From assembly GCA_028712365.1 (NCBI GenBank), contig JAQTQE010000007.1:1026-65025 (forward strand): DNA of 64,000 bases. The letters are read 5' to 3'. The translations under genes were made by a program, and so were the position numbers. This DNA is from a bacterium. GTDB taxonomy: Bacteria > CAYTYR01 > UBA6262. Below the pieces are notes generated by a model. It worked only from the letters and a program-made list of their open reading frames with translations, had not been told where the DNA came from and ran no database searches. Below, one piece after another: positions 4,312 through 57,097 of this stretch; position 1 is the stretch's first letter; every line of letters begins with the position of its first letter.

Positions 4312-5487
4312 TTATCTGATCACGGCTATCTTTCCTTTTTCCTGCCGGCTGTTATCATCAGGATAAGTAATGACATAAACATAAATTCCGCTGGCTACTT
4401 TCTCCCCTTCTTTATTTACCAGGTTCCAGTACACAGAAGATGAATTGTTATTTTTATCTACCTCATTGATCAGCTTACCGGAAAGGTCATAGATCTCAAT
4501 GTTAGCCCTGCTCTGCAAATTGCGGAAGTAAACCCTGCTGCTGTTTTTGCAGGGATTAGGATGTGTTCGCGCTTTTGAACCAGGGCCGGGTAAGGCCGGT
4601 TCTGGTTCAGGATCATCAGGATCCGTGGGATCGGCGGCACTAGTTCCTCCATCCCAACCAGCGAGGCGTGCCCACAACCACCAGGCAGCATAGGCTTTCT
4701 GATTGGCATTCAGAGGTTGAGAATGGGCGGCAGAACAATTATACCAGTCAACTCCTTCAGTATGCGCAGCCTGCCATTCTTCAGCCCAATTATTATCACG
4801 GCTGCCATTGTTGTCACTGTCATAATTGCACCCGTCATCCGGGCTTTTATCCCCGAAATAAGCGCCGTCCGGATCATAACTTTCAATATCTTCAAAATCA
4901 TAAAGGATCTTGTCATTGGCGTTACAATAATCCCTGATCTGCTGGTTGCGGATATGGAGATTACCGGTAAGACCGCCTCCATCCAGATGACCGGTCATAT
5001 AGACGAATTTCACCTTTGGATAATCACTTTCCAGACCATTCATCAGGCTGAGATATGTACTGATATTAGAATACGAAGAACCACTTACCTGGCCGCACCA
5101 GGACCAGATGATAACGTTTATTTCAGGGTGAGCATCGAGGTAATCCCTGGTAGCGGTTTCCCAGGCAGTGAAATTCGGATTACCCAGGTCACTGGCTCCT
5201 GTAATGTTCTCCCTCAAGTCCAGAGCTCCGCCCGTACCACCGCTATTATAGGCATAGGATGACCCTTTAAAAATAACCAGGCCGGTCATGCCGGTAGTGA
5301 GTTGGCTGCCATGAGAAGTGTGCCCATAGGCGATATGCAGGTCCTGACGCGCCTTATCTACCCAGGCTGAGGGTATCGTGGACAAATTGACGCAATTGTG
5401 ATCAATAACTTTGCTCGCGCCATAAGCCGACGCAGACAGTATGAGCACATAAATAATTAAAACCAGTATTTGTATTCTTTTTTTCAT
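4312..5487 (-). CDS. Secreted protein with a C-terminal type IX secretion (Por) sorting domain. It may be a hydrolase.
   Basis: It has an N-terminal signal peptide. The C-terminus ...VYFRNLQSRANIEIYDLSGKLI...GIYVYVITYPDDNSRQEKGKIAVIR matches the T9SS CTD pattern. Confidence 0.6.
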   Translation of the reverse strand: MKKRIQILVLIIYVLILSASAYGASKVIDHNCVNLSTIPSAWVDKARQDLHIAYGHTSHGSQLTTGMTGLVIFKGSSYAYNSGGTGGALDLRENITGASDLGNPNFTAWETATRDYLDAHPEINVIIWSWCGQVSGSSYSNISTYLSLMNGLESDYPKVKFVYMTGHLDGGGLTGNLHIRNQQIRDYCNANDKILYDFEDIESYDPDGAYFGDKSPDDGCNYDSDNNGSRDNNWAEEWQAAHTEGVDWYNCSAAHSQPLNANQKAYAAWWLWARLAGWDGGTSAADPTDPDDPEPEPALPGPGSKARTHPNPCKNSSRVYFRNLQSRANIEIYDLSGKLINEVDKNNNSSSVYWNLVNKEGEKVASGIYVYVITYPDDNSRQEKGKIAVIR

Positions 5488-5498
5488 TAACGCTCCAG

Positions 5499-6488
5499 TT
5501 AAATATATAGTCTTTTTGACAATTCCTTTAGATCCCTCAGCGCGTAACCAAACATTATTCCAGCATTCTTTTTGAGTCCAAAGTGTATGCTATCTTCAAG
5601 GGCAGCCTGCAACGCGCCGCAGGCTTTATACAGCAGGACTCTCATATAAGCTGCTTCCTTTAGCGCCGGCATAGTTTTCCCGTACGCTTCCCAGAAAGAC
5701 TGGTTTGGATCAGTCCCATAAAGGATCCACTCAAAATACGGGTCTCCCCAGAGGCTCCTGTCCCAATCCAGGATAGCAGCTATCTGATAATGACTGTGTT
5801 GTTTCCTGACCAGTATGTTCCTGAGCCAAAGATCTCCGTGAATAAGTCTTGGCGTTTTTACTTTATCCAACAGGGGCGCCATTCTTCGCGCCATAGTTGA
5901 TAATGAATATTCCTGAGGAAGGCACAAATACGGATGCCCCTTCAGGTCCTCTTCCAGGGAAAGCACATACTTAGCGATAAAATCGCTCCACCTTTTATGC
6001 CGGCCAAATGGCGGCGGATAGCCGAACCATTTTCCTTTGTTCGCCAATGAATGTATCTGCCGGGCATATCCCCCAAGCTCCCGGTATATATGATCCATTT
6101 CCTTTTCAGTCAAATACTTTTGCTGATAGTGGAGTGTCTGGCCCTCACTAAACTCAGAAATGACATAATCCCGATCGATCAGTTTCCTGGTAAAGTCGGA
6201 GAACAAGAGCTGCGGGACAGGTATTCCAGTCCCTCTTAAATACCGGTTAATATATACTTCCCGTTTCAGCAGTTGTTTCTCCACTCCCAATAGCTTCTTA
6301 TCATTAGGGGGAGCGACCCTTAATACCACCATCCTTTGGTCAGCTAATTCAATTTGATAGGAAGTATTGAACAGGCCGCCGCGGATAGGCTGGGAGCGAA
6401 TCACCTTGATCCCGCTGCCCAATCCTCTCTTGATCAGTGATTCTATTGTTTTACTGCTGATGGGAGCTTTCAGGATCTTATGAGCCAA
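5499..6488 (-). CDS. Phosphotransferase (APH/choline-kinase-like) family protein.
   Basis: It carries the Brenner motif LIHGDLWLRNILV and a downstream DWD (ILDWDRS). Confidence 0.7.
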   Translation of the reverse strand: MAHKILKAPISSKTIESLIKRGLGSGIKVIRSQPIRGGLFNTSYQIELADQRMVVLRVAPPNDKKLLGVEKQLLKREVYINRYLRGTGIPVPQLLFSDFTRKLIDRDYVISEFSEGQTLHYQQKYLTEKEMDHIYRELGGYARQIHSLANKGKWFGYPPPFGRHKRWSDFIAKYVLSLEEDLKGHPYLCLPQEYSLSTMARRMAPLLDKVKTPRLIHGDLWLRNILVRKQHSHYQIAAILDWDRSLWGDPYFEWILYGTDPNQSFWEAYGKTMPALKEAAYMRVLLYKACGALQAALEDSIHFGLKKNAGIMFGYALRDLKELSKRLYI

Positions 6489-6497
6489 GATGTTCCC

Positions 6498-6857
6498 CTA
6501 TTTAGTTGTCTTTCTCTCGTTATAGCCTTTATCGCCATATGGCTGTAGTTTATCGAGCCACATTGCTTCAAGCACTTCCAGGTCATCGGAATAATTATAA
6601 GCTGGATCTTCTTTGGGCTTGAGCTGGTCAATTATTTCAAAAACGAAATTATCCTTGCCAAATTCCCTATAATCCTTCTGCAGATCCGTATTTGGATGGC
6701 TGCCCATATCTAATTGGAATGTTTCCCTATTGATCCTGCCCGGTATATTATTACTATTAATGACCAGGATCTTGCCATTTACTTTATTCCGTATTTTAAA
6801 AACACCCATCGGTTGCAAGGTTTCTTTGTATTGCTTTCTCAGCGCTTTTTTATCCAA
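6498..6857 (-). CDS. Small GIY-YIG-like nuclease family protein.
   Basis: GVFKIRNKVNGKILVINSNNIPGRINRE...GSHPN..LQKDYREFGKDNFVFEII resembles stand-alone GIY-YIG proteins in its Arg, H-N and FEI(L) positions. The YIG motif is degenerate. Confidence 0.4.
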   Translation of the reverse strand: MDKKALRKQYKETLQPMGVFKIRNKVNGKILVINSNNIPGRINRETFQLDMGSHPNTDLQKDYREFGKDNFVFEIIDQLKPKEDPAYNYSDDLEVLEAMWLDKLQPYGDKGYNERKTTK

Positions 6858-6867
6858 TTGGTCTCCT

Positions 6868-7323
6868 CTAATTGATCTTTTTTATTTCCTGCTTTTGGGT
6901 GAAAGGCACACCCTTCTCTCCGGTGAAGAACACAATAAGCACTACCTCCTCTGTCCCATTATTCCGTCCATTGTGCGCTACATTTACTACTTCAGCGAAT
7001 GCTTCTCCTGCTTTAAACTGCCGGGACACGGCTTTATCATACTCCAGCGTGATAGTCCCGGAAAGCACGTAAGCATAGCCAGGCACTGAATGAGTATGCC
7101 AGCCAGTTTCTTGTCCTATCGGTATCGTTACCTTCAGGCCAGTAACCTCTGGCTGCTCTACCTGGGGATAGACCAGATTTTGCCCGACAACATCCTGGGT
7201 TGCCTGGAGCACCATCTTTGACTGCACACCCGCGTTGTAGACTGTTTCAGCCTTAACTGGCCCAATAACTATCAAGCACAGCCCCAGGACCGCCAGCCTT
7301 ACCTTTGATCGATCAAGACGCAT
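6868..7323 (-). CDS. Secreted cupin-domain protein.
   Basis: It has a signal peptide and a cupin beta-barrel motif (GWHTHSVPGYAYVLSGTITLEY...GEAFAEVVNVAHNGRN). Confidence 0.7.
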   Translation of the reverse strand: MRLDRSKVRLAVLGLCLIVIGPVKAETVYNAGVQSKMVLQATQDVVGQNLVYPQVEQPEVTGLKVTIPIGQETGWHTHSVPGYAYVLSGTITLEYDKAVSRQFKAGEAFAEVVNVAHNGRNNGTEEVVLIVFFTGEKGVPFTQKQEIKKIN

Positions 7324-7348
7324 TTACCAATCTCCTTTTGTGTCTTTA

Positions 7349-10300
7349 TTATTGCTTTTTCATGGTGATATAAATGTTCTTTTTATACTGGTTATTATCA
7401 GCGTCTGTCCAGGCAATAGTAACCTTACCGGTTTGATCAGCGATATAGGAGCCATGATCAACCATTACTGTGACAATATCTTCTTCTCCCGTAGTATCAC
7501 CGTGAACCGGCATGATGATAGTGATCCAGTCTTCATCCTCGCTCAGCGTCCAGGAGATCGTCTGGCCGCTGGCGCTTTTTATTTTAAAAGCCCCCGCCTG
7601 CACTAAAGGCCCTATGATCAGATGCTCACTGTCTGTCTCCAGCAACGCCGGAAGGCTTTTTTTGCTTTTAGGCAACTGGTTTGGAAACCTCACGGCATTC
7701 GGATCATCCAGGGTGACTGTAATGAATTTCTTCCCGGCGCTACCCGCGTCCACCACCATTACCGTATGCGTGGAAGCTGTGACCGCGCTCCAATCCACGG
7801 TCAAAGCTACGGGCTCCATCTCATTGACAGTGGTACCAGTGGCTGGAGTGATCGCTAACCAGGTAACCGGCCGTAATTGGCTGATCGACCAGTTCATAGC
7901 CGCGAATCCATTATTCTCGATATTTATCTTCCTGGCAGTTTCCGGTCTATTGATGACCACTTCGCTTGCCGCGATAAATAATTCCGGTTGTACCGGCACA
8001 GAAACAGTGATATCTTTCCGTCCGGCGCCAGTACCATTCTCGTCAACGGCCAGGAGCGTGATCGTCCCGGTATAGGTTTTCGTCGCGGTTAATTTAGTCC
8101 TGTCTAATGTCACCCGCAGGATAAAATCATCCAGGTCATCATACACATAAGCTTCTGGTGTCACTGCGGTCCAAGCTTCACTATTGGCATGATCACGGCA
8201 GTTCACGCTAAACCAATCATCGCTGATATATATTTTGTATTTTAAAATTTTCCCGCCATCATTGTCGAGATAGATATATCTTTCACTTTCATTATTCGAC
8301 CAATCCAGGGTTAAGGGATAGGCCACCAGTTTGGCCGGCGGGTCAGCAGCCAAGTTCTTGGAATCGGGATTGCGCGGGTTGGTCCCGGCTGCTACTTCTG
8401 CGCTGTCACTGACAGCGTCATCATCGCTATCCTCATCAGTTATACTTGTGCCATATCTTATTTCCTGTGCGAGGGCTAGCCCGTCACCGTCGATATCCTG
8501 GTCGACGCTGTTATAAATACCATCATGATCATGATCTAAAGGCACGGCCAGGGTCACCTTGGCCATATTGCCGCTGCCCTTGGTTTCTTTCTTAGCCAGG
8601 CCAATCCCGTTTTTTACATAAACGATAAAAACCCAGGGGTCATGAGGGCTAACTGATGAGTATAGAGTCGACCCGAAAGCGCCAAGTTTCGCGCATTGGG
8701 CCAGGAAATTAACTTGTTTATGTTTAGCTAAAGCTAGAATATATTTGTCACTGGTATTGTCATATTGGTCTAGCCAGTTATGCACGGCTGTCACACTGGT
8801 TAGTTCCTTCATACTTTTACTTATCAGCCGGCCGCTGTCAGGGTCAAAAGCCGCGGCTAAAACACAAGCCGGGGAACTGGCGTCAAAATCCCAGATGAGC
8901 GAATCATTCTTAGTGATCCTGGCAGATGACGCGTTCAGGTCAGATCCTGCTTCTACTTCAAACACTGGTTTTAGATAATTCAACGCATTATATCTATTCC
9001 GGTAATCGGTAATAGCCGGGCGGGCGCGGCGATTATAACCGCTGGTGCCGCCGGTATCCCATCTTACGTGATCTATCCAGTACTGGATATTGCCGTTACC
9101 AGTCCTGATCGGCCTGCTGGAAACAGAGAAAACCATTTTCATCTTTTCCAGATTAAGCTTGGCCAAGTGCGACCCATTGGCAGGATGTTTGTAACCATAC
9201 TCATCCTGCCAGGTATAGCTGTGACTGTCCCACAAAGCGCTGATCGGCACAGTGATCTCCTGCCAGGCTGTACTATTAGCGTTGAATTCACTGAAATAAC
9301 TTTCATCGAACCATATAAAAACAGCGTTTTCCAAGCCGCTCTCGTCTTCGAACTTCAGGAAAATATCTTGCTTCAGCGGCTCCCCGATCGGTGTCGCCGG
9401 AGTAGTAGTTTGCTGGATCTTTATCCAAAATTTCAAATCACCATTGGCAAATCTTGATAGATCAATAAAATCCCTGGTGCGGAAGAGCCCCCAACCCCCG
9501 CCATAATCCTTGCCCCAGATCTCTGTATATGTGCAGCGGTGACCTTCGGGTATAATGTTGCCGGCCCCGCTGCCGCCAGTATAAGCATATTCTTTAAAAT
9601 TACTGTAATTTAACCTGCTGCCTTCCTGAAGGCTGATATAGTCAGCCTGGGAATTGATCTTACCATAACCTGTCCCTTGCGCCGGCAAGCCCCAGGTGAA
9701 AAAGTCCCAAGCCGGACTTCCGCCTTTTTGTTCACCGATCAAGCCCATATCGCTAAAGAAGACCAATGGGTTGATAGTCTTAGGATCCTGGCTGTTGAGC
9801 CCCCAAAACTCCTCTTCCATGCATCCGTCAGGCCACAAGTAAGTATTAGCCGGTACTCCGTTGTTTACCGGATAACCAGGATCATTATCATGAGTTTCCG
9901 GATTTTTGCCTTTCAGTTTCCACCATTCATCTACCCACTCAAAAGCGCAGCCACCAAGCAGGGAATCACTATTGTCTTGAGCCGACAACCGGCTTTGTAT
10001 TTCGCTCCATTGCCAACTGAGCCCTTCTTTCTGGCTCGCTACATCTTCAAATTCTTTTGCCGGGTCAGTATGGTAGCGCCACGCATCCACCCCATATTCA
10101 CTGAAATAATACGGCTTATTACACGTAACAGTATCGGCATACATCTCATAGAACGGGTCAAAGCTCTTGCCTTTATACAGGTTCAACCCTATCAGGTCAA
10201 TATTAGGCAACAAGCCAACACCGGCTTTATAATGTTCATATGAAGGATAATGCGGTTCACCCAAACACACGGCTACGGGATGATTGGGATCATTAGCTTT

Positions 10301-11089
10301 TATCCAGCCAGCCAGGTCGTTTACCGCCTGGCAGGCAGCTTCGAAACTGGCGTATCGCCACATATATGTTTGTTGATCGTTAAAATTGTAATTAAATTCG
10401 TTACCGATCGACCAGAACAGCAAGGCAGGATGATCTTTATACGTATTAATAATTTTTTGCGCCAACGCGGTATTGCAGTTTAAACCGTCTACCACCATGA
10501 TGACTTTCAAGCCGTTCCGGTAGGCTTCATCCAGGACTGCCAGGCCTTGTGTCACCGCGTTTGCCCCCTGATCGCCGATCATGGCCATACCATCCTGCCA
10601 ATCCATGAATCCATTACCATTTTCATCCAGGGCTACAGGATACCCGCCGATATATACTATATTGCCATTGGCATCGGTCTGCCACAGGAGGTGATCCGTA
10701 TTTTCATGGAAATATAAACTGCTGTCTTTAGCCAATCCCGGATCAATATACATTCTGATGGTATTGAACCCGGCTTCCCTGATCCGCGGGAAATCATACT
10801 TCGCCATCTCCCACATTCTCTTCCGGCCATCATGCTCGAATGGCGCTCCTGCCGGGTAGGTTTCCGAAGGCCAGAGAGTGGCTACGCTCCAACAGACCCC
10901 CTTGATCACGTAGTTAGTCTCTGCTTTCATCGTCCCGTCTTCCCTGATCTGATGAACTTTTAATTGGTGGCCGTCGACTCTGACCGTAGCAGGCACAGCC
11001 GGGATCGGGGGGAGCGGAGACAAGGTCTTACATGCCGCCAGAAAAACCAGTAGAACTGCCGCGGTGATGATCATTTTAAACACGCGCAT
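7349..11089 (-). CDS. Large multi-domain glycoside hydrolase lipoprotein (1246 aa). It has a GH-A clan TIM-barrel catalytic domain, Ca-binding TSP3-like repeats and Ig/BACON-like domains.
   Basis: The signal is MRVFKMIITAAVLLVFLAAC. The barrel motifs are GFNTIRMYIDPG, FWSIGNEFNYNF and YFSEYGVDAW. The run DHDHDGIYNSVDQDIDGDG...DEDSDDD is acidic and Ca-binding-like. Confidence 0.7.
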   Translation of the reverse strand: MRVFKMIITAAVLLVFLAACKTLSPLPPIPAVPATVRVDGHQLKVHQIREDGTMKAETNYVIKGVCWSVATLWPSETYPAGAPFEHDGRKRMWEMAKYDFPRIREAGFNTIRMYIDPGLAKDSSLYFHENTDHLLWQTDANGNIVYIGGYPVALDENGNGFMDWQDGMAMIGDQGANAVTQGLAVLDEAYRNGLKVIMVVDGLNCNTALAQKIINTYKDHPALLFWSIGNEFNYNFNDQQTYMWRYASFEAACQAVNDLAGWIKANDPNHPVAVCLGEPHYPSYEHYKAGVGLLPNIDLIGLNLYKGKSFDPFYEMYADTVTCNKPYYFSEYGVDAWRYHTDPAKEFEDVASQKEGLSWQWSEIQSRLSAQDNSDSLLGGCAFEWVDEWWKLKGKNPETHDNDPGYPVNNGVPANTYLWPDGCMEEEFWGLNSQDPKTINPLVFFSDMGLIGEQKGGSPAWDFFTWGLPAQGTGYGKINSQADYISLQEGSRLNYSNFKEYAYTGGSGAGNIIPEGHRCTYTEIWGKDYGGGWGLFRTRDFIDLSRFANGDLKFWIKIQQTTTPATPIGEPLKQDIFLKFEDESGLENAVFIWFDESYFSEFNANSTAWQEITVPISALWDSHSYTWQDEYGYKHPANGSHLAKLNLEKMKMVFSVSSRPIRTGNGNIQYWIDHVRWDTGGTSGYNRRARPAITDYRNRYNALNYLKPVFEVEAGSDLNASSARITKNDSLIWDFDASSPACVLAAAFDPDSGRLISKSMKELTSVTAVHNWLDQYDNTSDKYILALAKHKQVNFLAQCAKLGAFGSTLYSSVSPHDPWVFIVYVKNGIGLAKKETKGSGNMAKVTLAVPLDHDHDGIYNSVDQDIDGDGLALAQEIRYGTSITDEDSDDDAVSDSAEVAAGTNPRNPDSKNLAADPPAKLVAYPLTLDWSNNESERYIYLDNDGGKILKYKIYISDDWFSVNCRDHANSEAWTAVTPEAYVYDDLDDFILRVTLDRTKLTATKTYTGTITLLAVDENGTGAGRKDITVSVPVQPELFIAASEVVINRPETARKINIENNGFAAMNWSISQLRPVTWLAITPATGTTVNEMEPVALTVDWSAVTASTHTVMVVDAGSAGKKFITVTLDDPNAVRFPNQLPKSKKSLPALLETDSEHLIIGPLVQAGAFKIKSASGQTISWTLSEDEDWITIIMPVHGDTTGEEDIVTVMVDHGSYIADQTGKVTIAWTDADNNQYKKNIYITMKKQ

Positions 11090-11098
11090 TATTACCCC

Positions 11099-11827
11099 CT
11101 ACCTGACTCCTATAAGTTTATGTGTTTGCGGAATGACTTTCACGGTTGATAAATGTTCCAGGGCCAGGTTCTGGAACGCAAAGATATTTTTTGGCAACAT
11201 AGCCCTGACCTGGCGGAGGGGTGTGACTGGCTGTAAGACCAATGGAATATGCCGGGAGATCCCGGCAATGAGCTCAATGGCTTTTTTGATCTCGGCTGCC
11301 CTGGATTTAGAGGTTAAGATGATCTTCACAAAAATTTTTCCCGGTTTTAACCGAGATTTATTCAGAACCGTCAAAAACGCCTGGTGTTCTTTCCAAAAGG
11401 CAGGATTACCACTGGAAGGCAGTTTTATGTCCATAGCCACATAATCGACTAAGTTAACGATCTTCTTCAACTCTTGCGGTAATGTGCCATTAGTCTCAAG
11501 ATATATCCTTAATCCCAGTTTTTTAACCTGGGGGATCAGCTCTTTTAAAAAATCAGCATAGAGCAACGGCTCTCCGCCGGTGATAGAAACTGAATGGATT
11601 TTTGTTTTCTTTAATACCTCTATTTTACTTAAAACTTGTGAGCTGGTTAACTTGCCTGCTTGTTTGCTGCTTGTCGTATCACAATAAGCGCATTTCAGGT
11701 TACAATCCGCGAACCGGATAAAAGCCTGACGTTCTCCTACGAATAAACCTTCTCCCTGGATGCTGGCAAATATTTCAGTGATCGGCGCCTTGCTATTTGG
11801 TTGTAACTGCCATCTGCTATCTGTCAT
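11099..11827 (-). CDS. queE: 7-carboxy-7-deazaguanine synthase (radical SAM).
   Basis: The ADCNLKCAYCDT cluster motif is present. The gene sits in the queDCE context. Confidence 0.85.
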   Translation of the reverse strand: MTDSRWQLQPNSKAPITEIFASIQGEGLFVGERQAFIRFADCNLKCAYCDTTSSKQAGKLTSSQVLSKIEVLKKTKIHSVSITGGEPLLYADFLKELIPQVKKLGLRIYLETNGTLPQELKKIVNLVDYVAMDIKLPSSGNPAFWKEHQAFLTVLNKSRLKPGKIFVKIILTSKSRAAEIKKAIELIAGISRHIPLVLQPVTPLRQVRAMLPKNIFAFQNLALEHLSTVKVIPQTHKLIGVR

Positions 11828-12528
11828 CTGCTATCCAAAATCGCTGGATCAGCGATTTTAGCCTCCCGGAAACCTTTGGCGCGCAGGATACAGCTGTCAC
11901 AAATACCGCACGGCCTGGTACCGCCGCGATAGCAACTCCAGGTGAACTGGTACGGCACTTTTAATTCGCTGCCCCAGCGGATGATCTGGGCTTTGGTTTT
12001 ATGCAAAAGAGGCGTTACTATTTTTATTTTCCGGCCTTCTACTCCGGCCTTGGTAGCAAGATCAGCCATTTTTTGTATGGCTTGGAAATATTTTGGCCGG
12101 CAGTCAGGATACCCGCTATAATCAAGAGCATTGGCCCCGATCACCACCGCTTTGGCGCCAATAGCTTCAGCGCATGACAAGGCGAAACTGAGAAAAATAG
12201 TGTTGCGAGCCGGGACATAAGTACTAGGAATGGCGGATAGCGGACGGCGGACGGCAGTTGAAACAGGAACAGATAAATTCTTATCTAAGAGGGAGCTGCC
12301 TTTCCAGGGGAAAGATATTTTGACTATTTGATATTGGCATTTTGCGGTTTTAGCGATCTTAGCAGCTTGCTGTATTTCCTTCTTATGTCTTTGGCCATAG
12401 TCAAATACCAGGCAATGGCACTCATAACCCTGGTCCTTTGCCCAATACAGGCAAGTGGTTGAATCCAGGCCGCCAGAAAGTAACACCACCGCAGTTTTCT
12501 TTTTATTCATGATGCTCCCTAAATGCAA
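11824..12528 (-). CDS. queC: 7-cyano-7-deazaguanine synthase.
   Basis: It has the LLSGGLDSTTC PP-loop and a C-terminal CxxC...C zinc motif (CGICDSC). Confidence 0.9.
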   Translation of the reverse strand: MHLGSIMNKKKTAVVLLSGGLDSTTCLYWAKDQGYECHCLVFDYGQRHKKEIQQAAKIAKTAKCQYQIVKISFPWKGSSLLDKNLSVPVSTAVRRPLSAIPSTYVPARNTIFLSFALSCAEAIGAKAVVIGANALDYSGYPDCRPKYFQAIQKMADLATKAGVEGRKIKIVTPLLHKTKAQIIRWGSELKVPYQFTWSCYRGGTRPCGICDSCILRAKGFREAKIADPAILDSR

Positions 12529-12579
12529 ACAGTGTTGATAGATGTTCGATCAACTATCAACCATGAACGATCAACAGTA

Positions 12580-12948: not shown

Positions 12949-12959
12949 AAACACCCCTA

Positions 12960-13083
12960 TTAAAATACTAATTTCTAATATCGAATTCCTAAACAAATCA
13001 AAAATACTAAATTCTAATTTCCTAAACGTTTAGAAATTTGACCTTGTTTAGGATTCAGATATTAGTGCTTAGAATTTGCTTTT
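12960..13083. repeat. AT-rich palindromic intergenic repeat, family B, core (G)TTTAGGATT(C)AGATATTAG with CCTAAA(T) arms.
   Basis: ...TAATTTCCTAAACGTTTAGAAATTTGACCTTGTTTAGGATTCAGATATTAGTGCTTAGAATTTG... It lies between murI and queD. Confidence 0.55.
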
Positions 13084-13887: not shown

Positions 13888-13888
13888 A

Positions 13889-15487
13889 TTATTCTTGTTC
13901 CTTTCGCTCGATATAATCCATGATCCCATTAAAGATCGTTTTCGCTATCTTATCATTAAAGCTGCCCTTGTTCAATAACCTTTCTTCGCGCTTATTGGAC
14001 AAGAAAGCGCATTCGACCAGCACTGCCGGCATTTTGGCCCCGCGCAGGACATAAAAACCAGCTTGTTTTACTCCCCGGTTGAGCAGGTCCACGTCCATTT
14101 CATTGACCCGTCCTACGACAAAGGAACACAATTCACTGGAATCATTGACAAATTCATTCAAGGTCAGTGACCACAGGATAGCTTTTAACTTATCAGTCAC
14201 GGCTGATCTATCTTCCAGATCAATGACCGAGTTTTCGATATTCGCTACTGCTTCAGCTTCCATATCCGTAGCCCGTTCACTTAAAAAATAGATCTCAAAC
14301 CCGCTGGCCTTACGGTCCAAGCCAGAGTTGCAGTGAATAGAGACAAATAGATCGGCTTTTTTAAGGTTGGCGATCTGGGTGCGTTCGGCTAAGGGTATGA
14401 ATTCGTCTTCTTTCCTGGTGAGAATGACCTGCAAATTAGTTTTTTCATGCAACAACTGGGCCAATTTAAAGGCCAGAGAGAGATTAACATCTTTTTCCTT
14501 GGTGCCATATTGCCCTATAGCGCCCGGGTCCTTACCGCCATGTCCGGGATCGATCACGATTGTTCTTATTTTAGCAGTATTGACTTTCTTTGGTGGTTCA
14601 GGTTTGGATCTTATCTCTGGCGTGACTACCGGTGGTGGAGACAATTCCGGGGTAACTGGCGGAGCTTTCACCACTGCTACGCTGGCTGGCTGTGTAGACG
14701 CGGATATTTCCGACTCTGGCGGACAAACCTGGGCCCCTGTCTTCTTGATATTAACCAATATACGCCAGGGATTATCAACAACTTTGACACTGTATTCGAA
14801 TTCCGGGCAAACCTCTATCACCCAAGATACTTTATTGCTTTTTTGGATCAGGTTCATATTGGTGACCAAGGCATTACCCGGCACCGTGTATTTCTTATCC
14901 TGGTCCAGCACCCCTTTATAGATATCTACTGTGATCTTATTAGCCGCTTCCAGGGATGTCTCATAATACAGTTTTTCCTGGGTCTCCAATATTAGCTGGC
15001 TGAGGCCTTCTTGCTGTTGCGTTTTCACTCCGGATATATTAGGGGTTTGGAATATTTTTAAGGTTTTGGTTGATTCATCGAATTTTATTCTCAGCCCGAC
15101 AGGTTTGGTAAAACCGCGGCTGATAATAAAACTAAGAGGAACGTAAAGGTCCCCTTTTTCCAAGCGGCAAACCGAGGTCATCTTGACCTTCTGTTCATTG
15201 ATCGTAGCGGTTCTGCCGAAATATGTCAATTCGATCCGCACGCCTTTGAGGGACAAGATCACTTTTTTACTGACCGGCAGCCATTTTATATCGGCAGCCA
15301 GGAAATCAGCCAAGTCACTGACATCGAGGAATTTTTCCTTATTTAGTTCGTATAGTTTAGCGTTTTCAGTGCGGGTTCCGTTATCAAGAGTGACTTTGAT
15401 CGATAGCGGTACAGGCTGCGCCTGTACCGGTGTAACAAACAATGAAGATAGCAATAGAAATAAAGGGATGGTAATTTTAGAATGCAA
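13889..15487 (-). CDS. N-acetylmuramoyl-L-alanine amidase (Amidase_3) with an N-terminal AMIN-like region.
   Basis: The Amidase_3 motif is IVIDPGHGGKDPGAIG...VSIHCNS...E.YF. The signal peptide is PLFLLLSSLFVTPVQA. A probable TTG start at 15487 sits behind AAGGAA. Confidence 0.75.
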   Translation of the reverse strand: MHSKITIPLFLLLSSLFVTPVQAQPVPLSIKVTLDNGTRTENAKLYELNKEKFLDVSDLADFLAADIKWLPVSKKVILSLKGVRIELTYFGRTATINEQKVKMTSVCRLEKGDLYVPLSFIISRGFTKPVGLRIKFDESTKTLKIFQTPNISGVKTQQQEGLSQLILETQEKLYYETSLEAANKITVDIYKGVLDQDKKYTVPGNALVTNMNLIQKSNKVSWVIEVCPEFEYSVKVVDNPWRILVNIKKTGAQVCPPESEISASTQPASVAVVKAPPVTPELSPPPVVTPEIRSKPEPPKKVNTAKIRTIVIDPGHGGKDPGAIGQYGTKEKDVNLSLAFKLAQLLHEKTNLQVILTRKEDEFIPLAERTQIANLKKADLFVSIHCNSGLDRKASGFEIYFLSERATDMEAEAVANIENSVIDLEDRSAVTDKLKAILWSLTLNEFVNDSSELCSFVVGRVNEMDVDLLNRGVKQAGFYVLRGAKMPAVLVECAFLSNKREERLLNKGSFNDKIAKTIFNGIMDYIERKEQE

Positions 15488-15533
15488 AACCCCGTTCCTT
15501 TCTAGGATAAATAGGAAATAATAATTGAGAATA

Positions 15534-15576
15534 GAAAATCGAAAATTGACCACAATCAAATCTCGATTTTCGATTG
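15534..15576. promoter_or_regulatory. Palindromic tandem-heptamer element upstream of the amidase gene.
   Basis: (GAAAATC)(GAAAAT)TGACCACAATCAAATCT(CGATTTT)(CGATT) is an inverted tandem repeat about 60 nt 5' of the amidase start. Confidence 0.25.
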
Positions 15577-15583
15577 TTCTAAA

Positions 15584-15600
15584 TTTTGCCAAGGGCAAAA
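15584..15600 (-). terminator. Probable rho-independent terminator in the ssrA 3' trailer.
   Basis: On the minus strand a perfect 7-bp hairpin (TTTTGCC CTT GGCAAAA) is followed by TTTAGAAC. Confidence 0.4.
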
Positions 15601-15743
15601 TATGGAGGTGCCGGGAATCCTCCTCACCCAGGCCGTATGCGCGGCCTTCCTTCGTCGCCGGCCAGTCTCGCTCGGACCAATGGCGCTCAACTTGGCTTCG
15701 ATTCCCTTAAGCAAGGGAGAAAATATGGAGGTGCCGGGAATCG
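15590..15743. repeat. About 30-bp direct repeat of the tmRNA 3' end. Copy 1 is at 15590-15619 and copy 2, the functional 3' end, is at 15712-15743. The repeats flank a GC-rich 92-bp stretch.
   Basis: AAGGG(C/AG)AAAATATGGAGGTGCCGGGAATC occurs twice. Only copy 2 continues into the T-arm (GAACCCGG). Confidence 0.7.
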
Positions 15744-16075
15744 AACCCGGGTCCCAAAATACGGTGTCGAGAACTTCTACAGGTTTAGTCTAGTAATTGA
15801 TTTCGCTGCTTCTGGCTCCACTAGATAGGATACAAAGGCAGCTATCCTTACTGATCTCACTTGACTCGCTAAGGAGTAACTCGTCAAGCCAGCCTACAGT
15901 TTTTGTACCTCTACCGCCCGTAGGCAGAGCAGGTAAAGATACTACGCCTTAACAGGCGTATGCGTACTGCGTGTTATAGTTAGCAGTTATAATTTGCTAG
16001 GTATTTAACGGCGACCCAACCATGCCGACCTGCCATCCAAGACCCCAAATATTCCGGTCGAAACCTTTCACCCCC
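15726..16075 (-). ncRNA. ssrA: tmRNA (SsrA), standard one-piece form.
   Basis: The minus strand begins GGGGGUGAAAGGUUUCGACCGG... at the 5' end. It ends ...GGACCCGGGUUCGAUUCCCGGCACCUCCA with a tRNA-like T-arm and acceptor, and CCA is not encoded. The gene lies immediately downstream of smpB. Confidence 0.8.
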
Positions 16076-16077
16076 AT

Positions 16078-16122
16078 CTGAAATACAAATTCTAAATCCT
16101 AAATTCGAAATTCTAAACAAAG
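16078..16122. repeat. Short family B copy.
   Basis: GAAATACAAATTCTAAATCCTAAATTCGAAATTCTAAACAAAG lies between the ssrA 5' end and the smpB stop. Confidence 0.4.
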
Positions 16123-16578
16123 TTATTTATGTTTTTCGCGAAAGGCTCTTTGCATTTCTCTCTGAGCATCCTTCTTTTTCAACTCGTCTCTCTTATCCCG
16201 TGCATTCCTGCCACGCGCCAGGGCCAATTTTACTTTCACATTTCCTTTACTGAAATATAATTCCAAAGGGACCAAAGTCAGCCCCTTTTCTTTGACTTTG
16301 CCCATTAGCTTTTTTATCTCTTTTTTATGCAAAAGCAATTTGCGTACCCGTAAAGCGTCACATTCTTCCAGGCGCGAATGTTCATATGGCGAAATATGCA
16401 TATTATAAAGAAAGACTTCTTCTTTATTGATACTGGCATGGGCATCGCCCATATTGATATGGCCGCCCCTGATCGACTTCACTTCATTGCCTTTTAGGAC
16501 AATACCAGCCTCAAAAGAATCCAGGATCTCGTAATTATGCAGGGCTTTACGGTTCGTAGAAATGTTTTTTCGTTCCAT
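16123..16578 (-). CDS. smpB: SsrA-binding protein.
   Basis: MERKNISTNRKALHNYEI...GNEVKSIRGGHINMGDAHA... is canonical SmpB. The ORF extension upstream of this Met is antisense to a tRNA. Confidence 0.9.
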   Translation of the reverse strand: MERKNISTNRKALHNYEILDSFEAGIVLKGNEVKSIRGGHINMGDAHASINKEEVFLYNMHISPYEHSRLEECDALRVRKLLLHKKEIKKLMGKVKEKGLTLVPLELYFSKGNVKVKLALARGRNARDKRDELKKKDAQREMQRAFREKHK

Positions 16579-16694
16579 CAAGGTAATATACCATAAAAAT
16601 CTACTATTTTCAAGTCTATCTTGACAGAACTGTGGATTTAAGGTATACTTTAAATACCCGCCAAGCAAGGATATAGGCGGGCCGATATTTATAT

Positions 16695-16781
16695 GGACGA
16701 GTGGCGGAATTGGCATACGCGTAGCGCTCAGGACGCTATGGTCGTTAGACCTTAAGGGTTCAACTCCCTTCTCGTCCACCA
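16695..16781 (+). tRNA. tRNA-Leu (anticodon CAG), type II with a long variable arm. CCA is encoded.
   Basis: GGACGAGTGGCGGAATTGGCATACGCGTAGCGCTCAGGACGCTA...GGTTCAACTCCCTTCTCGTCCACCA. The D-arm is near-identical to E. coli tRNA-Leu. The anticodon loop is CUCAGGA. Confidence 0.85.
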
Positions 16782-16854
16782 AATTTTCTCGAAAATTTGG
16801 TAGAGCAATCGAGAATCCCTGCCTGCCGGCAAGCAGGGAAATTAGAAAAACAAA

Positions 16855-16890
16855 AACCTCTGTTAGTATTCTTAACAGAGGTTTCTATTA
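16855..16890. terminator. Bidirectional rho-independent terminator.
   Basis: An 11-bp perfect stem (AACCTCTGTTA / TAACAGAGGTT) has an A-run (AAAAACAAAAA) before it and TTTCTATT after it. It would serve the plus-strand tRNA-Leu and the minus-strand gene 16920-17819. Confidence 0.6.
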
Positions 16891-16919
16891 TAACCGCACT
16901 ATCTTGAACTATTCTTATC

Positions 16920-17819
16920 TTAGAATTTCACGCCTAAACTGATCCTATGCGTATCGCTCAGTTCGCCATATGGCACCCAGGCATAGGACAGGTTGATCTT
17001 GTTGATATTAAATCCTAATCCCGCGCTTACTCCTGCTAATCCGTCCAGTTTATCATCTTTACCCGCTTTGTATCCCAGGTCCAGCACCAGGGCATTGATC
17101 ACCTTGTATTCCATTCCTACGCCAATGGTCATTTTGGAATCATAGTAGTTGAGATCACTGGTCAGGTTGATCTTGGACAGGCTGTAGTTGATACCGGCCG
17201 CCAGGGTTAAAGGCAGGTCATATCCTTCGCTGATGAATTTCATCTGCGGCCCCAGGTTGCGTAAGGCTATACCGACATTTAAGTTGTCTATGCTGGTCTT
17301 GACCAATGCGCCCAGGTCCACAGCCATTCCGGTAGTGCTTTCATCATCGATCTTCTGGTTGATGACCTTGATACTGGCGCCTAAGGCAACCTTTTCATTT
17401 ATTTTCTTGGCCAGGGCTAAAGTCCCACAGGTATCAGTGGCGCTAAAAGTACCTAATTTTTCCCGGGTCTCGGACCGCTTCTCCATCTCCCCGGATTGCA
17501 GCATAACGATACTGCCGCCAAGAACTAAACCACTAGAGAAAGGTTGGGCATAGCTGGCAAATTCATAGTTCATATCAGCCAGCCAACTGGCATACATCGC
17601 GGATAATTCTTTCTCTTGCAGAAAGCCTAATCCTCCTGGATTCCAGTTGACGGCGTTGACATCATCGGCCAATCCCACATAATTGCCGCCCAGGGCAGAA
17701 GGCCTGGCCCCGGCGCCGATCTTTAAAAACGCCGCGCCCGTAGAAGCTGCCCAGACCGCGCTGGTTAGAATTAAGATTAAGCTGCTGCTTATTAGCGCCA
17801 CTTTCAACTTCCGTTTCAT
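16920..17819 (-). CDS. PorV/PorQ-family outer-membrane beta-barrel protein (T9SS-associated).
   Basis: It has a signal peptide. FLKIGAGARPSALGGNYVGLADDVNAVNWNPGGLG is the hallmark N-terminal motif of the PorV/PorQ/UPF0164 family. A C-terminal ...LGVKF closes the beta-barrel. Confidence 0.55.
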   Translation of the reverse strand: MKRKLKVALISSSLILILTSAVWAASTGAAFLKIGAGARPSALGGNYVGLADDVNAVNWNPGGLGFLQEKELSAMYASWLADMNYEFASYAQPFSSGLVLGGSIVMLQSGEMEKRSETREKLGTFSATDTCGTLALAKKINEKVALGASIKVINQKIDDESTTGMAVDLGALVKTSIDNLNVGIALRNLGPQMKFISEGYDLPLTLAAGINYSLSKINLTSDLNYYDSKMTIGVGMEYKVINALVLDLGYKAGKDDKLDGLAGVSAGLGFNINKINLSYAWVPYGELSDTHRISLGVKF

Positions 17820-17849
17820 TTCTTCCTCCTGATCTTTATTATAATTATA

Positions 17850-20800
17850 TTATTTCAGTATCGCGAATTTCTTAGTTATCTTGAGCTTATCCGAACCTCT
17901 GGTCGCCACGATCCGCGCGATGTATACTCCACTGGCCTGTCCGGATGTATCCCATTGGTATTCATATGCATACTGGCCGTTAATGATAGTCGGAGTATCG
18001 GTAATCTCAAAGCTGTCCTGCAGGTCACCGGCGACATCATAGATGTATACTTCTACCTTGTCTGCTTCTCCCACTTCCACATGGATCACCGGTTGTTGGC
18101 TTTCCTTAGCCGGATTCGGATACACATAAGTCTCTCCTTCAACAAAGTCAGTGCTGGGCGCGTAACCCAGGGCCGCTGCTGCCATCGTGGTCGGTGAGAA
18201 TTTGAGCGCTACCCCGTTGCTGATGCTGGCGGTAGGATACGTTACTCCAGCGGTGCCGGTCGGATTCTCGATCCCGATCACCGTGGTCAGGTCTTTGGTC
18301 ACTGACTGGTATTGGTATACGATCACGCCGGTCTTGTAGATGATCACCTGGAAAGTTTGCTTGTTGGTGTTGGCGTAGTTATAGACGCTCCAGGTTACCA
18401 CAAACTTATCGCTATAGCTGCCATAAGTTATGGCACTGCCGGATTTGGCCGGATTGAGGTCCCGCCAGTAGGCGGCTAAGAGCGCGTTCGGCTGGTAACT
18501 GCTCGGTATGGTGACTGGTGAATAAGCGGTGCTATTGGAGACAAAGCTCATAAAGCCGTTGCCGCAAACATAGACTGAACTATAGCTGACGCCGTAGAAG
18601 CTGACCGTGAAAGGCAAGGTGAACAGCTTGCTCTGGTCATCCAGGGTAATGCCGGTCGTAGTGCTGGTGGTGATCCAGCTGTATGGCGTCGTGTTTACCG
18701 TATAAGTCGGCGCGTTACCTACCTGGATCAGGATCCCGTTGCTGGCCGCGGTATAGCTGCCATACAAGGTGGCTCCGTTACGGGCACGTACTCGCGCGTA
18801 GTAGGTTAACCCGTTGGTGCAGCCGCTGATGGCCTTGGTGACTACATTGCCAACATACTCATTGTAGGCAAAGGTACTGAATGATGTATTGGTGGATACT
18901 TGCAAAGTATACCCACTGATCCCGCTTTCCGCGTCGACGGCAGTGCCTGCGGTCCAGTTAAAGGTAAGGCTGGTGGAGGTGGAGGTTGTTCCGGCATCGG
19001 TCGGAACTGATGGCAAACCTGTCGGGGCAGTGGTATCGATCTTGATCCCGTTGCTGCTGCCACTGTATGTGCCGTACAAGCCGCCGCCGTTCTTGGCCCG
19101 GATCCGCGCATAATATGTCTGGCCCTGGGTGCAACCAGTGATGGTCTTGGTCAGAACATTCCCGGTATCACTGTTAAAGATGGAAGTAGCAAAAGTAGAA
19201 CTGGTGGAAACTTGCAGGGCATACCCGGCTATACCGCTTTCCGCGTCTGCCGCGGTACCTATCGTCCAGTTGAATACCAAGGTCGTGCTGGTGCTATATA
19301 CTCCGGCATCGGTCGGTACAGTGGGCGTACCGGTAGGAGCGGTTGTGTCCGCGGTCTGCACCAGTATACCATTACTGGCGCCTGAAAAACTGCCATATAA
19401 TCCAACGCCATTCTTGGCCCGGACGCGGGCATAATAAGTCAATCCATTAGTGCAGCCAGAAATAGACTTGGTCAGCACAGTGCTTACATCTCCATTGAAG
19501 ATAAAGGTGCTGAACGCGGTGCTGGTTGATACTTGCAGGTAGTAGCCATTTAAGCCTGATTCCGGATCAGCGGCGGTACCGGCAGTCCAGTTAAAAGTTA
19601 AAGTAGTACTACTTGAAGCAGTCCCCGCATCCGTTGGTACGGATGGTGTACCCGTGGGTGGAGTAGTATCCGTCGCTACCGGTACTTCATCATAAGAAAC
19701 TTCGTCTACATAAAAAGTAATGGGACTGGAGATGCCGGTATTGCGTGACGCTTCGATGAAAAAGTACCATACTCCATTTATGGAGCTGAGATTTAATCCA
19801 GCCAGGTCAATGGTAATCGGCTGCCAGGCAGTAGTTAAAGTGAAGGCAGACTCTTTCTTGGCAGTATCAGTAGCTTGACCCGTACCAAAGGTGACTACTA
19901 CGCCGTTAACTGAAGATTTTGCCAGGAAGGTCAGGCGTTTATTGCCGGTTAAGTTAATGCCTGCTCCATTCCAGTTCCCGGAGTACAAACTATAAATACC
20001 AGCCCAAGTCTCTGCTGAGGGATTATAAGTGAATTTTGTGCTGGTGCTGCCGCTATACTTCTCGCCGGTAAAAGCCGGATCACAAGTCAAGCTTGCTCCG
20101 TTATTGGATCCCATCCAGCCGGTAAGACCGTTCAGCCAGCTAGTGTCCCAATACATGCGATATGGGAACGTGCCTGTACCGCCGCTGTCTGAATGGTCAT
20201 AGGCAATAGTCATATCATTAAGATAAGGAGTAACTGCGGTATTGGTAGTGGCCAGGAAAGCCCTGACGCGCAGGTCAGACCCGGATGAAGGGAAAGTATA
20301 TTTTGTACCAGGGGTAATATCACGCCAGCTGCTACCACCATCATTACTCAAACGGAAAGTGAGACTCTGGCCGTTCAAGGTAGCGTTATAGGTTAAGGTA
20401 GCTGCTGTTATGTTAGTAGTAGCAATATCTATGGCCGTAGTCTCGGCAAAGGAACTAGTAACATATGATGTCCCTGCTGAGAACAAAGCCAGGTCACCGG
20501 ACCAAGCCCTGGTCCCGGCAGACAATATCTTATTGGCATACAGGTTACTGTTAGACATCCAGACGCCAAACAATCCGCCGGCTCCATCAGTGGCAATTTC
20601 AGCTCCGCTTTGGTCAATGAAATCAGTCTGGCAAATCTGGACACCGCCAGACGTCCATTGCGTGGCGTCAGTAGAACTAAGCTTTTGTCCGCGTAATGTA
20701 TAGTCATAACCGCTGCCAGTATCATAACGATCACGGAAAACGATATATTTATTTCCTGAGTAATCCGTGGCTATGTCTGCCAGCTCTTTTTGCAGGTACA

Positions 20801-21725
20801 TGGCCCCTGTATTGGAGATCTGGATCGGGCCAGCCAGCCTGGTACCGCTGGAATTATATTTTTCATAATATACCGTATAATTAACATTGTAAACAGCGCA
20901 AACATAACCCAAGGCATCTACTGCTATTTCTACTTGCCCCGGAGAGCCAACATCTACTGTCCAAAGGGTATTGCCACTGGCATCGATCCTGGTAATAGCG
21001 CCGTTAACGCTGGCAGTATAGGTATAGCCAACATTACTGGCAATAGCCGGGTCATTACCATTATTATACTTATCGCCCCAGAGCTTGTTGCCATTGATAT
21101 CAAACTTGGACATAAATGAGCCGGTCCCCTGGGGGCCATACCGCTGATAGATCACATATATATTATTACTATTGTCAACTGCCAGGTCATGCAGGCACCA
21201 TTCCGCTGAATAAGCCGCGGAATCAGCTTGCCGGTCCCATTGATAGTCCCCATTGGAATTGTATTTTAAAAGCCTCAGGTTACCAGTACTGACCGCGTAA
21301 GATACATATATATTACTACTGCTGTCACAGGCTACTCTTGGCGCCTGATCCCAGACACCATCCAACAGCACTGACTGGTTCAGTTTCTTATCTCCCCAGA
21401 TTTTGGTCCCGCTGGTATTGTACTTGGCGCCATAGACATCAATAGCCCCGTTACGGCTGTCTATCCAGACCATGATCATGTTGCCGGAGGCATCACGCGT
21501 TATGTGCATGCTCTTCTGGGTATAGCTGGCTGTGCTGGTGGTCGGCAAAGAAACTTGGCCGGTGGCAGTGTTCCATACCGCGGTGGTATTGGATGCTTTG
21601 TAGGTTGTACTAGTGAAGGTTTCGGTAAAACTGGTGGTGGTAGCTAGAGCCGCCTGCCCATAGCAGAGACAGGAAAAAATAGCTATGACCCTTACTGCAG
21701 ACTTAAGAATGGTACTCAACTTCAT
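17850..21725 (-). CDS. Giant secreted T9SS cargo protein (1291 aa) with beta-propeller-like repeats, three tandem fibronectin-III-like repeats and a C-terminal Por sorting domain.
   Basis: The signal is LCYGQAALA. Three ~97-aa repeats (PTG.PSVPTDAG...LTFNWT.GTA.D.ESG..GY.LQVST...GCT.G.TYYARVRA.NG.GLYG) show up as ~290-bp DNA repeats at about 18840-19700. The C-terminus is YVYPNPAKES...GVYIARIVATRGSDKLKITKKFAILK. Confidence 0.7.
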   Translation of the reverse strand: MKLSTILKSAVRVIAIFSCLCYGQAALATTTSFTETFTSTTYKASNTTAVWNTATGQVSLPTTSTASYTQKSMHITRDASGNMIMVWIDSRNGAIDVYGAKYNTSGTKIWGDKKLNQSVLLDGVWDQAPRVACDSSSNIYVSYAVSTGNLRLLKYNSNGDYQWDRQADSAAYSAEWCLHDLAVDNSNNIYVIYQRYGPQGTGSFMSKFDINGNKLWGDKYNNGNDPAIASNVGYTYTASVNGAITRIDASGNTLWTVDVGSPGQVEIAVDALGYVCAVYNVNYTVYYEKYNSSGTRLAGPIQISNTGAMYLQKELADIATDYSGNKYIVFRDRYDTGSGYDYTLRGQKLSSTDATQWTSGGVQICQTDFIDQSGAEIATDGAGGLFGVWMSNSNLYANKILSAGTRAWSGDLALFSAGTSYVTSSFAETTAIDIATTNITAATLTYNATLNGQSLTFRLSNDGGSSWRDITPGTKYTFPSSGSDLRVRAFLATTNTAVTPYLNDMTIAYDHSDSGGTGTFPYRMYWDTSWLNGLTGWMGSNNGASLTCDPAFTGEKYSGSTSTKFTYNPSAETWAGIYSLYSGNWNGAGINLTGNKRLTFLAKSSVNGVVVTFGTGQATDTAKKESAFTLTTAWQPITIDLAGLNLSSINGVWYFFIEASRNTGISSPITFYVDEVSYDEVPVATDTTPPTGTPSVPTDAGTASSSTTLTFNWTAGTAADPESGLNGYYLQVSTSTAFSTFIFNGDVSTVLTKSISGCTNGLTYYARVRAKNGVGLYGSFSGASNGILVQTADTTAPTGTPTVPTDAGVYSTSTTLVFNWTIGTAADAESGIAGYALQVSTSSTFATSIFNSDTGNVLTKTITGCTQGQTYYARIRAKNGGGLYGTYSGSSNGIKIDTTAPTGLPSVPTDAGTTSTSTSLTFNWTAGTAVDAESGISGYTLQVSTNTSFSTFAYNEYVGNVVTKAISGCTNGLTYYARVRARNGATLYGSYTAASNGILIQVGNAPTYTVNTTPYSWITTSTTTGITLDDQSKLFTLPFTVSFYGVSYSSVYVCGNGFMSFVSNSTAYSPVTIPSSYQPNALLAAYWRDLNPAKSGSAITYGSYSDKFVVTWSVYNYANTNKQTFQVIIYKTGVIVYQYQSVTKDLTTVIGIENPTGTAGVTYPTASISNGVALKFSPTTMAAAALGYAPSTDFVEGETYVYPNPAKESQQPVIHVEVGEADKVEVYIYDVAGDLQDSFEITDTPTIINGQYAYEYQWDTSGQASGVYIARIVATRGSDKLKITKKFAILK

Positions 21726-57076: not shown

Positions 57077-57097
57077 CCTGCTTTTAAATCCTTAATC

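Follow-up and report, generated by a model that had tools for sequence, protein, structure and literature searches.

A conserved cargo-barrel gene pair with type A-like sorting domains in Elusimicrobiota and a proposed cognate role for its PorV/PorQ-family barrel

Background

When the gene for a large secreted protein that ends in a type IX-style C-terminal sorting domain (CTD) lies directly beside the gene for a PorV/PorQ-family outer-membrane barrel, does the barrel serve that one protein? We addressed this question at a locus in a window of 64,000 nucleotides (nt), which is the whole stretch of DNA analyzed here and comprises positions 1,026-65,025 of the forward strand of the 67.4-kb contig JAQTQE010000007.1 (assembly GCA_028712365.1); all coordinates below are positions in this window. 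The locus encodes a cargo protein of 1291 amino acids (aa) followed by a barrel of 299 aa. Our analysis leads us to propose, with a probability that we put at roughly 0.6, that the two genes are a chromosomal two-gene operon of Elusimicrobiota in which the CTD of the upstream protein would have the barrel as its cognate receptor and probably as its surface anchor.

According to reviews and surveys, type IX secretion is limited to Bacteroidota or, more broadly, the FCB group (PMC4793230, PMC11205867, PMC7463736), and in the published view a cognate shuttle gene lies beside the cargo gene for type B cargo only, whereas type A cargo depends on one general PorV. In Bacteroidota all type A cargo is handed from SprA to this general PorV (PMC12618676), while type B cargo depends on, and is anchored by, cognate PorP/SprF shuttles that are often encoded beside it (PMC9143113, PMC12618676). 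The locus described here and its relatives combine type A-like signals one-to-one with PorV/PorQ-like barrels, in a host phylum outside the FCB group. The gene-level annotation is not new; the NCBI pipeline already names the individual proteins correctly, and its label for such barrels is 'PorV/PorQ family protein'. What is new is the conserved arrangement of one cargo with one barrel and type A-like signals in Elusimicrobiota. Should barrel and cargo indeed work as a pair, the cognate-shuttle principle would reach the PorV/PorQ branch, there would be a genomic rule for assigning barrels to surface proteins in uncultured Elusimicrobiota, and the origin of the attachment and shuttle module of type IX secretion would become testable through the presence of the translocon and motor.

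The cargo gene and the barrel gene

An earlier sequence-only reading of the window had pointed to the open reading frames (ORFs) at 16920-17819, 17850-21725 and 4312-5487 as a type IX secretion footprint and had suggested that the first two form a dedicated shuttle-cargo pair. The three ORFs exist as described, all of them on the minus strand, which carries every long ORF from 3 to 23.5 kb in our ORF listing. The features of the locus are the following.

21917-21944, minus strand: candidate sigma-70-like promoter 5' of the cargo gene, TTGACA-16-TATATT, TG-extended, 11/12 (consensus match only)
17850-21725, minus strand: cargo gene, 1291 aa, with Sec signal, SBBP-like propeller, middle region, three FN3 modules, NIDO-like domain and type A-like CTD
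21642-21725, minus strand: predicted signal peptide of the cargo, aa 1-28, ...GQAALA/TTT, read by eye from the translation
19350-19670, minus strand: FN3 module 1, aa 686-792 (Pfam fn3 and module comparison)
19038-19349, minus strand: FN3 module 2, aa 793-896 (same basis)
18717-19037, minus strand: FN3 module 3, aa 897-1003 (same basis)
18156-18716, minus strand: NIDO-like domain, aa ~1004-1190 (homologs carry Pfam PF06119)
17853-18125, minus strand: type A-like CTD of the cargo, aa 1201-1291 (TIGR04183 and predicted beta-sandwich)
17820-17849, minus strand: spacer of 30 nt between cargo and barrel genes (ORF coordinates)
16920-17819, minus strand: PorV/PorQ-family 14-strand outer-membrane barrel, 299 aa, with signal peptide (profiles, predicted structure and fold match)
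16849-16889, minus strand: terminator-like hairpin with a 17-pair stem and then a T run, directly past the barrel stop codon
4312-5487, minus strand: second CTD protein, 391 aa, with signal peptide, N-terminal domain and CTD at 4315-4560

The promoter-like site 5' of the cargo gene, the 30-nt gap and the hairpin with its T run after the barrel gene fit a bicistronic operon of cargo and barrel.

Conservation of the pair among related loci

The cargo-then-barrel order is kept in relatives whose barrels are 69 % and 83 % identical to that of the window, and in both the pair sits in the same, otherwise housekeeping neighborhood; the relative with the 69 % identical barrel has a second CTD gene directly downstream of the barrel. 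A scan of species-representative genomes with an alignment of nine barrel sequences returned 79 loci, mostly from Elusimicrobiota and then from FCPU426, Poribacteria, TA06, KSB1 and Calditrichaceae. Adjacency was counted on 80 non-redundant loci utilizing our own ORF calls, a barrel hidden Markov model (HMM) and an iterated CTD HMM. In 51 of 82 cases (62 %) the gene directly upstream of the barrel and co-oriented with it encodes a CTD, against 5-12 % at the other positions from -4 to +4 and 35/725 (~5 %) for non-adjacent genes, which corresponds to an odds ratio of 32 (Fisher p 6e-36). In the Elusimicrobiota-type loci alone the count is 26/39 upstream CTDs over a background of 9/356. The suggestion of a dedicated barrel-cargo pair is thus borne out by both the synteny in the two relatives and the position of the CTDs.

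The neighbor C-termini were also compared with curated models: 40 of the 51 match TIGR04183, the type A model, and 43 match the C-terminus of the PorZ model, while TIGR04131, the type B model, is matched at E ≤ 1e-3 by five. All barrels of the related loci (86/86) match NF033709, and the gaps between cargo and barrel genes are operon-like in these loci, many of them between -4 and +60 nt. Among the neighbor cargoes, which range from 181 to more than 3300 aa, are S-layer-like, NosD-like beta-helix and CBM-bearing proteins. Two tandem cassettes, a GH113 mannanase-CTD protein followed by a barrel and a Peptidase_S8 (subtilisin)-CTD protein followed by a barrel, are also seen with independent gene calls and their precomputed Pfam assignments. 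Cassette cargoes include giant adhesin-like proteins as well as a mannanase and a subtilisin.

The barrels and their adjacent CTDs diverge together. Barrel identity is correlated with the identity of the adjacent CTD (Spearman 0.45, Mantel p 0.001), and four cassettes in one genome are ranked identically by barrel and by CTD, with barrel/CTD values of 0.91/0.96, 0.72/0.60-0.62 and 0.62/0.44-0.47. At least six paralogous barrels are present in RIFOXYA2_FULL_39_19.

A separate arrangement was seen in loci of Poribacteria, KSB1, Calditrichaceae and 'Cytophagia', where a CTD protein of ~1000-1190 aa precedes the barrel (L058, L060, L061, L063, L064, L065, L071, L072, L076, L078, L080 and L081). 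Five of these CTD proteins were compared with NCBIfam and gave no match at E ≤ 1e-5 except for one PorZ match confined to the CTD. We considered whether the ~1000-aa CTD proteins upstream of barrels are PorU and rejected this, as no match to the PorU model at E ≤ 1e-5 was found in a set comprising loci of Poribacteria, KSB1, Calditrichaceae, 'Cytophagia' and three others. The barrel and the ~1000-1190-aa CTD protein may be a distinct conserved pair.

Identity of the barrel

The 299-aa barrel protein carries a signal peptide and the FLKIGAGARPSALGG...NPGGLG motif of PorV/PorQ proteins, which had been recognized from the letters of 16920-17819, and it matches NF033709, the NCBIfam model of the PorV/PorQ family, with 196.2 bits (cutoff 90) over model positions 2-326 of 326. 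It stays under all ortholog-level (equivalog) cutoffs, with 140.6 bits for PorQ (NF033711, cutoff 220), 75.8 bits for PorV (NF033710, cutoff 250) and 65.1 bits for PorV2 (cutoff 325). It is also slightly under the threshold of the Pfam PorV profile, and its match to Pfam PF11751 (PorP_SprF) is marginal, at 23.4 bits for a cutoff of 22.3, and covers residues 154-280 only. The barrel is a member of the PorV/PorQ family and, by cutoff, neither a PorV nor a PorQ ortholog; the earlier description 'PorV-like' is right at the level of the family and does not extend to PorV itself, on whose model the protein scores lower than on that of PorQ.

An AlphaFold2 model of the barrel, built from an alignment of 26 homologs, has 14 long strands (pLDDT 73, pTM 0.74). 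A Foldseek search with this model places the PorV structures 8gl6_F and 6h3i_F on top (E 1e-12 to 1e-11, TM 0.71), PorV of the translocon complex ranking above TodX and FadL, and the sole PDB sequence match of the barrel is Flavobacterium johnsoniae PorV, 6h3i_F (E 1.8e-7).

Some members of the family are larger. Barrel ORFs of 470-685 aa (L041, L042, L043, L045, L052, L054 and L068) have apparent OmpA-like peptidoglycan-binding or TPR extensions, as deduced from ORF length and aggregate model matches, and some barrels adjoin separate TPR and OmpA genes (for example at L085 11315-12863), an arrangement that recalls PorP-PorE.

Sorting domains of the cargo proteins

Both cargo proteins of the window end in Por-type CTDs, as had been claimed. 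TIGR04183 (cutoff 23) matches the extreme C-termini of the large cargo with 27.4 bits and of the small cargo with 34.0 bits, and the isolated 110-aa C-terminus of the large cargo reaches 34.7 bits. With Pfam PF18962 (cutoff 27) the small cargo scores 27.7 bits, above the cutoff, and the large cargo 22.6 bits, below it, so the large cargo passes one of the two curated CTD models. For the type B model TIGR04131 (cutoff 35) the small cargo has 18.5 bits and the large cargo has no match. The models of PorZ and PorU also match the CTDs, with their C-terminal ends, while the cargo bodies are unrelated to PorZ and PorU. Hydrophobic N-terminal signal sequences are visible by eye in both cargo translations, and none of the remaining large secreted proteins of the window has a CTD at its C-terminus. 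The type IX-style footprint of the earlier reading therefore stands as one PorV/PorQ-family barrel and two type A-like CTDs.

A model of the large cargo's C-terminus, built from a 13-row alignment, has low confidence as a whole (pLDDT 54.6); its CTD part forms a beta-sandwich with pLDDT 60-91, and a Foldseek search with this low-confidence model returns generic Ig-like domains only, FlgD among them. The N-terminal region of the large cargo has a weak SBBP beta-propeller match. Homologs of the NIDO-like stretch carry PF06119 together with Por_Secre_tail, and the window cargo itself has no PF06119 match at E ≤ 0.01. Against PDB sequences the large cargo matches titin and neogenin FN3 domains only, and the small cargo has only weak matches, to the CTDs of PorU and PorZ.

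The host and the search for type IX machinery

The CTD cargo had been taken to place the organism in Bacteroidota or an allied phylum, and this placement has to be given up. The taxon-named UvrA matches among the best 120 are all Elusimicrobia, Elusimicrobiota, Endomicrobiales, Endomicrobiia or Endomicrobium, and Elusimicrobia is also the label of the metagenome-assembled genomes (MAGs) that contain the nearest barrel homologs and the syntenic loci. Because the UvrA matches and the syntenic relatives belong to Elusimicrobiota/Endomicrobia, the host is not a member of Bacteroidota and falls outside the FCB group as a whole. The 'Clostridia' label that a few close relatives bear looks like an automatic misassignment.

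Searches with Pfam and NCBIfam identified no core type IX gene, be it SprA/Sov, PorK/L/M/N (GldK/L/M/N), PorU, PorZ, PorT or PorW, among the ~50 ORFs of the window. Porphyromonas gingivalis Sov, whose sequence was taken from the supplement of PMC7323717, has no match at E ≤ 10 against the related loci (1.36 Mb) and the window translated in all six frames, which is a weak negative in view of the single distant query and the small, biased genome sample. No PorU adjoins any of the barrels examined, and no link between Elusimicrobia and type IX secretion was found in the literature searched, again a weak negative. Four large CTD-less neighbors were considered as SprA and rejected, since they contain LTD/fn3/PQQ, the core of an extracellular contractile injection system (eCIS), LysM or no domain. 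In an FCPU426 MAG, a protein of 1508 aa with an eCIS core domain (L050 4758-9284) is encoded close to a PorV-like barrel.

Proposed mechanism and its alternatives

Four observations underlie our proposal: what the components are, how the operon is laid out, that the order of cargo before barrel is kept in many paralogous cassettes, and that barrels and CTDs diverge together. From these we infer that the barrel physically binds the CTD, that it anchors the cargo rather than releasing it, and how the cargo crosses the membrane. The cargo would be exported by Sec as a 1291-aa modular surface protein in which the FN3 modules would act as spacers. The barrel, as the cognate receptor of its neighbor's CTD, would receive the cargo at the outer membrane and would probably retain it on the cell surface through the uncleaved CTD. 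A separate translocon would pass the cargo, because a protein of 1291 aa cannot go through a plugged 14-strand barrel. We favor a cognate receptor because the locus shows the genetic logic of type B cargo with parts of the PorV/PorQ type and of the type A type. Two results lean toward anchoring over release. First, among the ortholog-level models the barrel has its highest score with PorQ, and the CTDs match the PorZ and PorU C-termini; second, some family barrels have apparent OmpA-like or TPR extensions or neighbors. The CTDs of PorZ and PorU stay attached, uncleaved, to PorQ and PorV.

Several points weigh against this proposal. The loci are not phylogenetically independent, so that the p-values overstate the evidence and the statistics are to be read as a pattern and not as a calibrated probability. 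The pairing is not obligatory, because the second CTD protein of the window (4312-5487) is encoded without a neighboring barrel gene and about one third of the barrels are without a CTD neighbor. Co-divergence can come from a cassette that duplicates as a unit, without physical specificity. Cognate pairing of type A-like CTDs is without experimental precedent. Finally, the search of the window turned up neither translocon nor motor genes, and Sov/SprA is unmatched in the 1.36 Mb of related loci.

It is unlikely, in our estimate, that the barrel is the general PorV shuttle of a complete canonical type IX system encoded elsewhere, with its adjacency to the cargo being incidental. PorV is indeed the best structural and sequence match of the barrel, all type A CTDs of Bacteroidota use one PorV (PMC12618676), and the second CTD protein of the window has no barrel of its own. 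However, the barrel reaches less than a third of the PorV equivalog cutoff and scores higher on PorQ, related genomes have several paralogs that mostly have a different cargo directly upstream, and each barrel and its neighboring CTD co-diverge. Moreover, porU and porV are linked in Bacteroidota, and here no PorU is found beside the barrel.

We give the same low weight to the idea that Elusimicrobiota are without the type IX translocon and motor and that the cassette is a self-contained or differently powered surface-display device, in which the Ig-like C-terminal domain would dock on its cognate FadL-type barrel after export by another route. The absence of core type IX genes from the ~50 genes of the window, the unmatched Sov query, the large CTD-less neighbors that are not SprA, and a literature that holds no Elusimicrobia link we could find and restricts the system to Bacteroidota or FCB (PMC4793230, PMC11205867) are all in keeping with such a device. 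However, the translocon was looked for with one distant query only and in genome samples that are small and biased, and a plugged 14-strand barrel is implausible as a channel for proteins of 1000-3000 aa. The scores of the CTDs above the cutoff of the curated type A model also argue that the recognition machinery is the same. An autonomous surface-display module of this kind, in which a cognate PorQ-like barrel would capture an Ig-like C-terminal domain with neither an SprA translocon nor a GldLM/KN motor, would be either a reduced derivative or the ancestral core that gave rise to the attachment and shuttle functions of Bacteroidota, and we regard this as comparably doubtful.

FN3 modules and evolution of the cargo

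The sequence-only reading had seen in the large cargo three near-identical FN3 units of ~97 aa at 18840-19700, 70-80 % identical at the DNA level, and a hotspot for slipped-strand or recombinational variation in copy number. The three tandem modules are real (Pfam fn3), but they are 104-107 aa long and span 18717-19670, and they are not near-identical: protein identity among them is 65-73 % and DNA identity 62-64 %, the longest exact DNA words that they have in common are 11-15 nt, and neither of two repeat searches, including Tandem Repeats Finder, detects a DNA repeat in the region. The cargo ortholog in the relative with the 83 % identical barrel has four FN3 modules. Modules 2 and 3 of the window are nearest to their positional orthologs in that relative (78 % and 75 %), while module 1 is 73 % identical to module 3 and 68 % to its positional ortholog; the extra module of the relative is an unrelated FN3 with 21-26 % identity. 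In view of this positional orthology the triplication is old, older than the split from the relative.

That the modules are a contingency locus, whose copy number shifts within populations by slipped-strand mispairing or homologous recombination, is accordingly very improbable. Orthologs do have two, three or four FN3 modules, and module 1 is slightly nearer to module 3 than to its positional ortholog, but with the low DNA identity, the short shared words and the old triplication the locus is not a plausible substrate for slippage, and the additional module of the relative is not related to the three. We rejected a repeat-mediated contingency locus because near-identical tandem DNA repeats of a length that would permit slippage or RecA-type recombination are absent.

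Modular change of the cargo does occur over longer times, to judge from alignments with the fen_1175 lineage, which has two CTD genes flanking its barrel (L001 7008-9989 and L001 10921-13353). Compared with these two genes, the window cargo has a mosaic structure: aa 11-682 have their best match in the gene downstream of the barrel (50 %) and aa 791-1291 in the gene upstream of it (62.5 %), which points to domain shuffling between paralogous cargoes at the locus. The FN3 region also stands out in base composition, with a GC content of 0.52 and positive GC skew at 18001-20000, compared with 0.42-0.48 and negative skew in the remainder of the window; this probably reflects the Thr/Gly/Ala/Ser-rich modules.

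Comparison with known systems

A close genetic parallel is found in the PorP/SprF barrels with type B CTD cargo, such as SprB-SprF of F. johnsoniae and PG1035-PorP of P. gingivalis. In these pairs too, a cargo gene is linked to the gene of a 14-strand FadL-family barrel, several paralogous pairs occur per genome and some orphan cargoes lack an adjacent barrel. The barrel of these pairs binds and anchors its own cargo (PMC9143113, PMC12618676), as we propose for the window pair. The differences are that the window barrel is of the PorV/PorQ family, with its PF11751 match over a part of the protein only, that the window CTDs are type A-like, with TIGR04131 below cutoff or unmatched, and that the host phylum is Elusimicrobiota.

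The attachment complex of P. gingivalis offers a second comparison, since in PorQ-PorZ and PorV-PorU the CTD of a surface protein is gripped by a barrel of the PorV type. The window barrel scores higher on the PorQ than on the PorV model and the window CTDs match the C-terminal ends of PorZ and PorU. Unlike those proteins, the window cargo bodies are unrelated, the match being limited to the CTD, and the barrel remains below the PorQ cutoff. The porQ and porZ genes are not neighbors in P. gingivalis. PorV as the general type A shuttle on SprA (6H3I, 8GL6) is the best sequence and fold match and has the N-terminal motif in common with the window barrel; in contrast to it, the window barrel has 299 instead of ~400 aa, falls far short of the PorV equivalog, and belongs to barrels that are multi-copy and cargo-linked instead of single and general.

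A role of the barrel as a FadL/TodX-type channel for hydrophobic compounds, unrelated to the neighboring protein, can be dismissed: the barrel belongs to the same 14-strand superfamily, FadL and TodX are among its structural matches, and it matches Pfam Toluene_X (34.7 bits, cutoff 29.7) and, partially, UPF0164 (29.3 bits, above threshold), but the Toluene_X match spans profile positions 6-147 of 421 only, the PorV/PorQ family model scores far higher, PorV ranks above FadL and TodX in fold, and a lipid channel, for which no link to lipid or aromatic metabolism genes is seen, leaves the strong, oriented linkage to CTD genes unexplained.

Other features of the window

The pair is flanked on one side by a Tol-Pal cluster with a CARDB protein and on the other side by tRNA-Leu, smpB and the tmRNA gene, followed by amidase, racemase and queuosine genes. 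The tRNA-Leu(CAG) gene (16695-16781, plus strand) is the sole plus-strand gene among the ~50 genes in 64 kb and overlaps a spurious 5' extension of the smpB ORF at 16123-16782, in which the SmpB domain begins at about aa 70-74. The tmRNA gene (15723-16075, minus strand) adjoins smpB, and its tag peptide according to ARAGORN is ANYNTQYAYAC*, which ends in -YAC as opposed to the usual -LAA type.

Farther away, a two-gene module of a TonB-dependent receptor and an ABC-type substrate-binding protein is duplicated in tandem at 56150-62443 (minus strand), with copies at 57098-59302/56150-57076 and 60293-62443/59320-60267. The ORF at 7349-11089 (minus strand) encodes a lipoprotein-like protein of 1246 aa with a GH2-type TIM barrel and a BACON domain, and that at 41048-43090 (minus strand) encodes a 680-aa protein made wholly of HEAT repeats.

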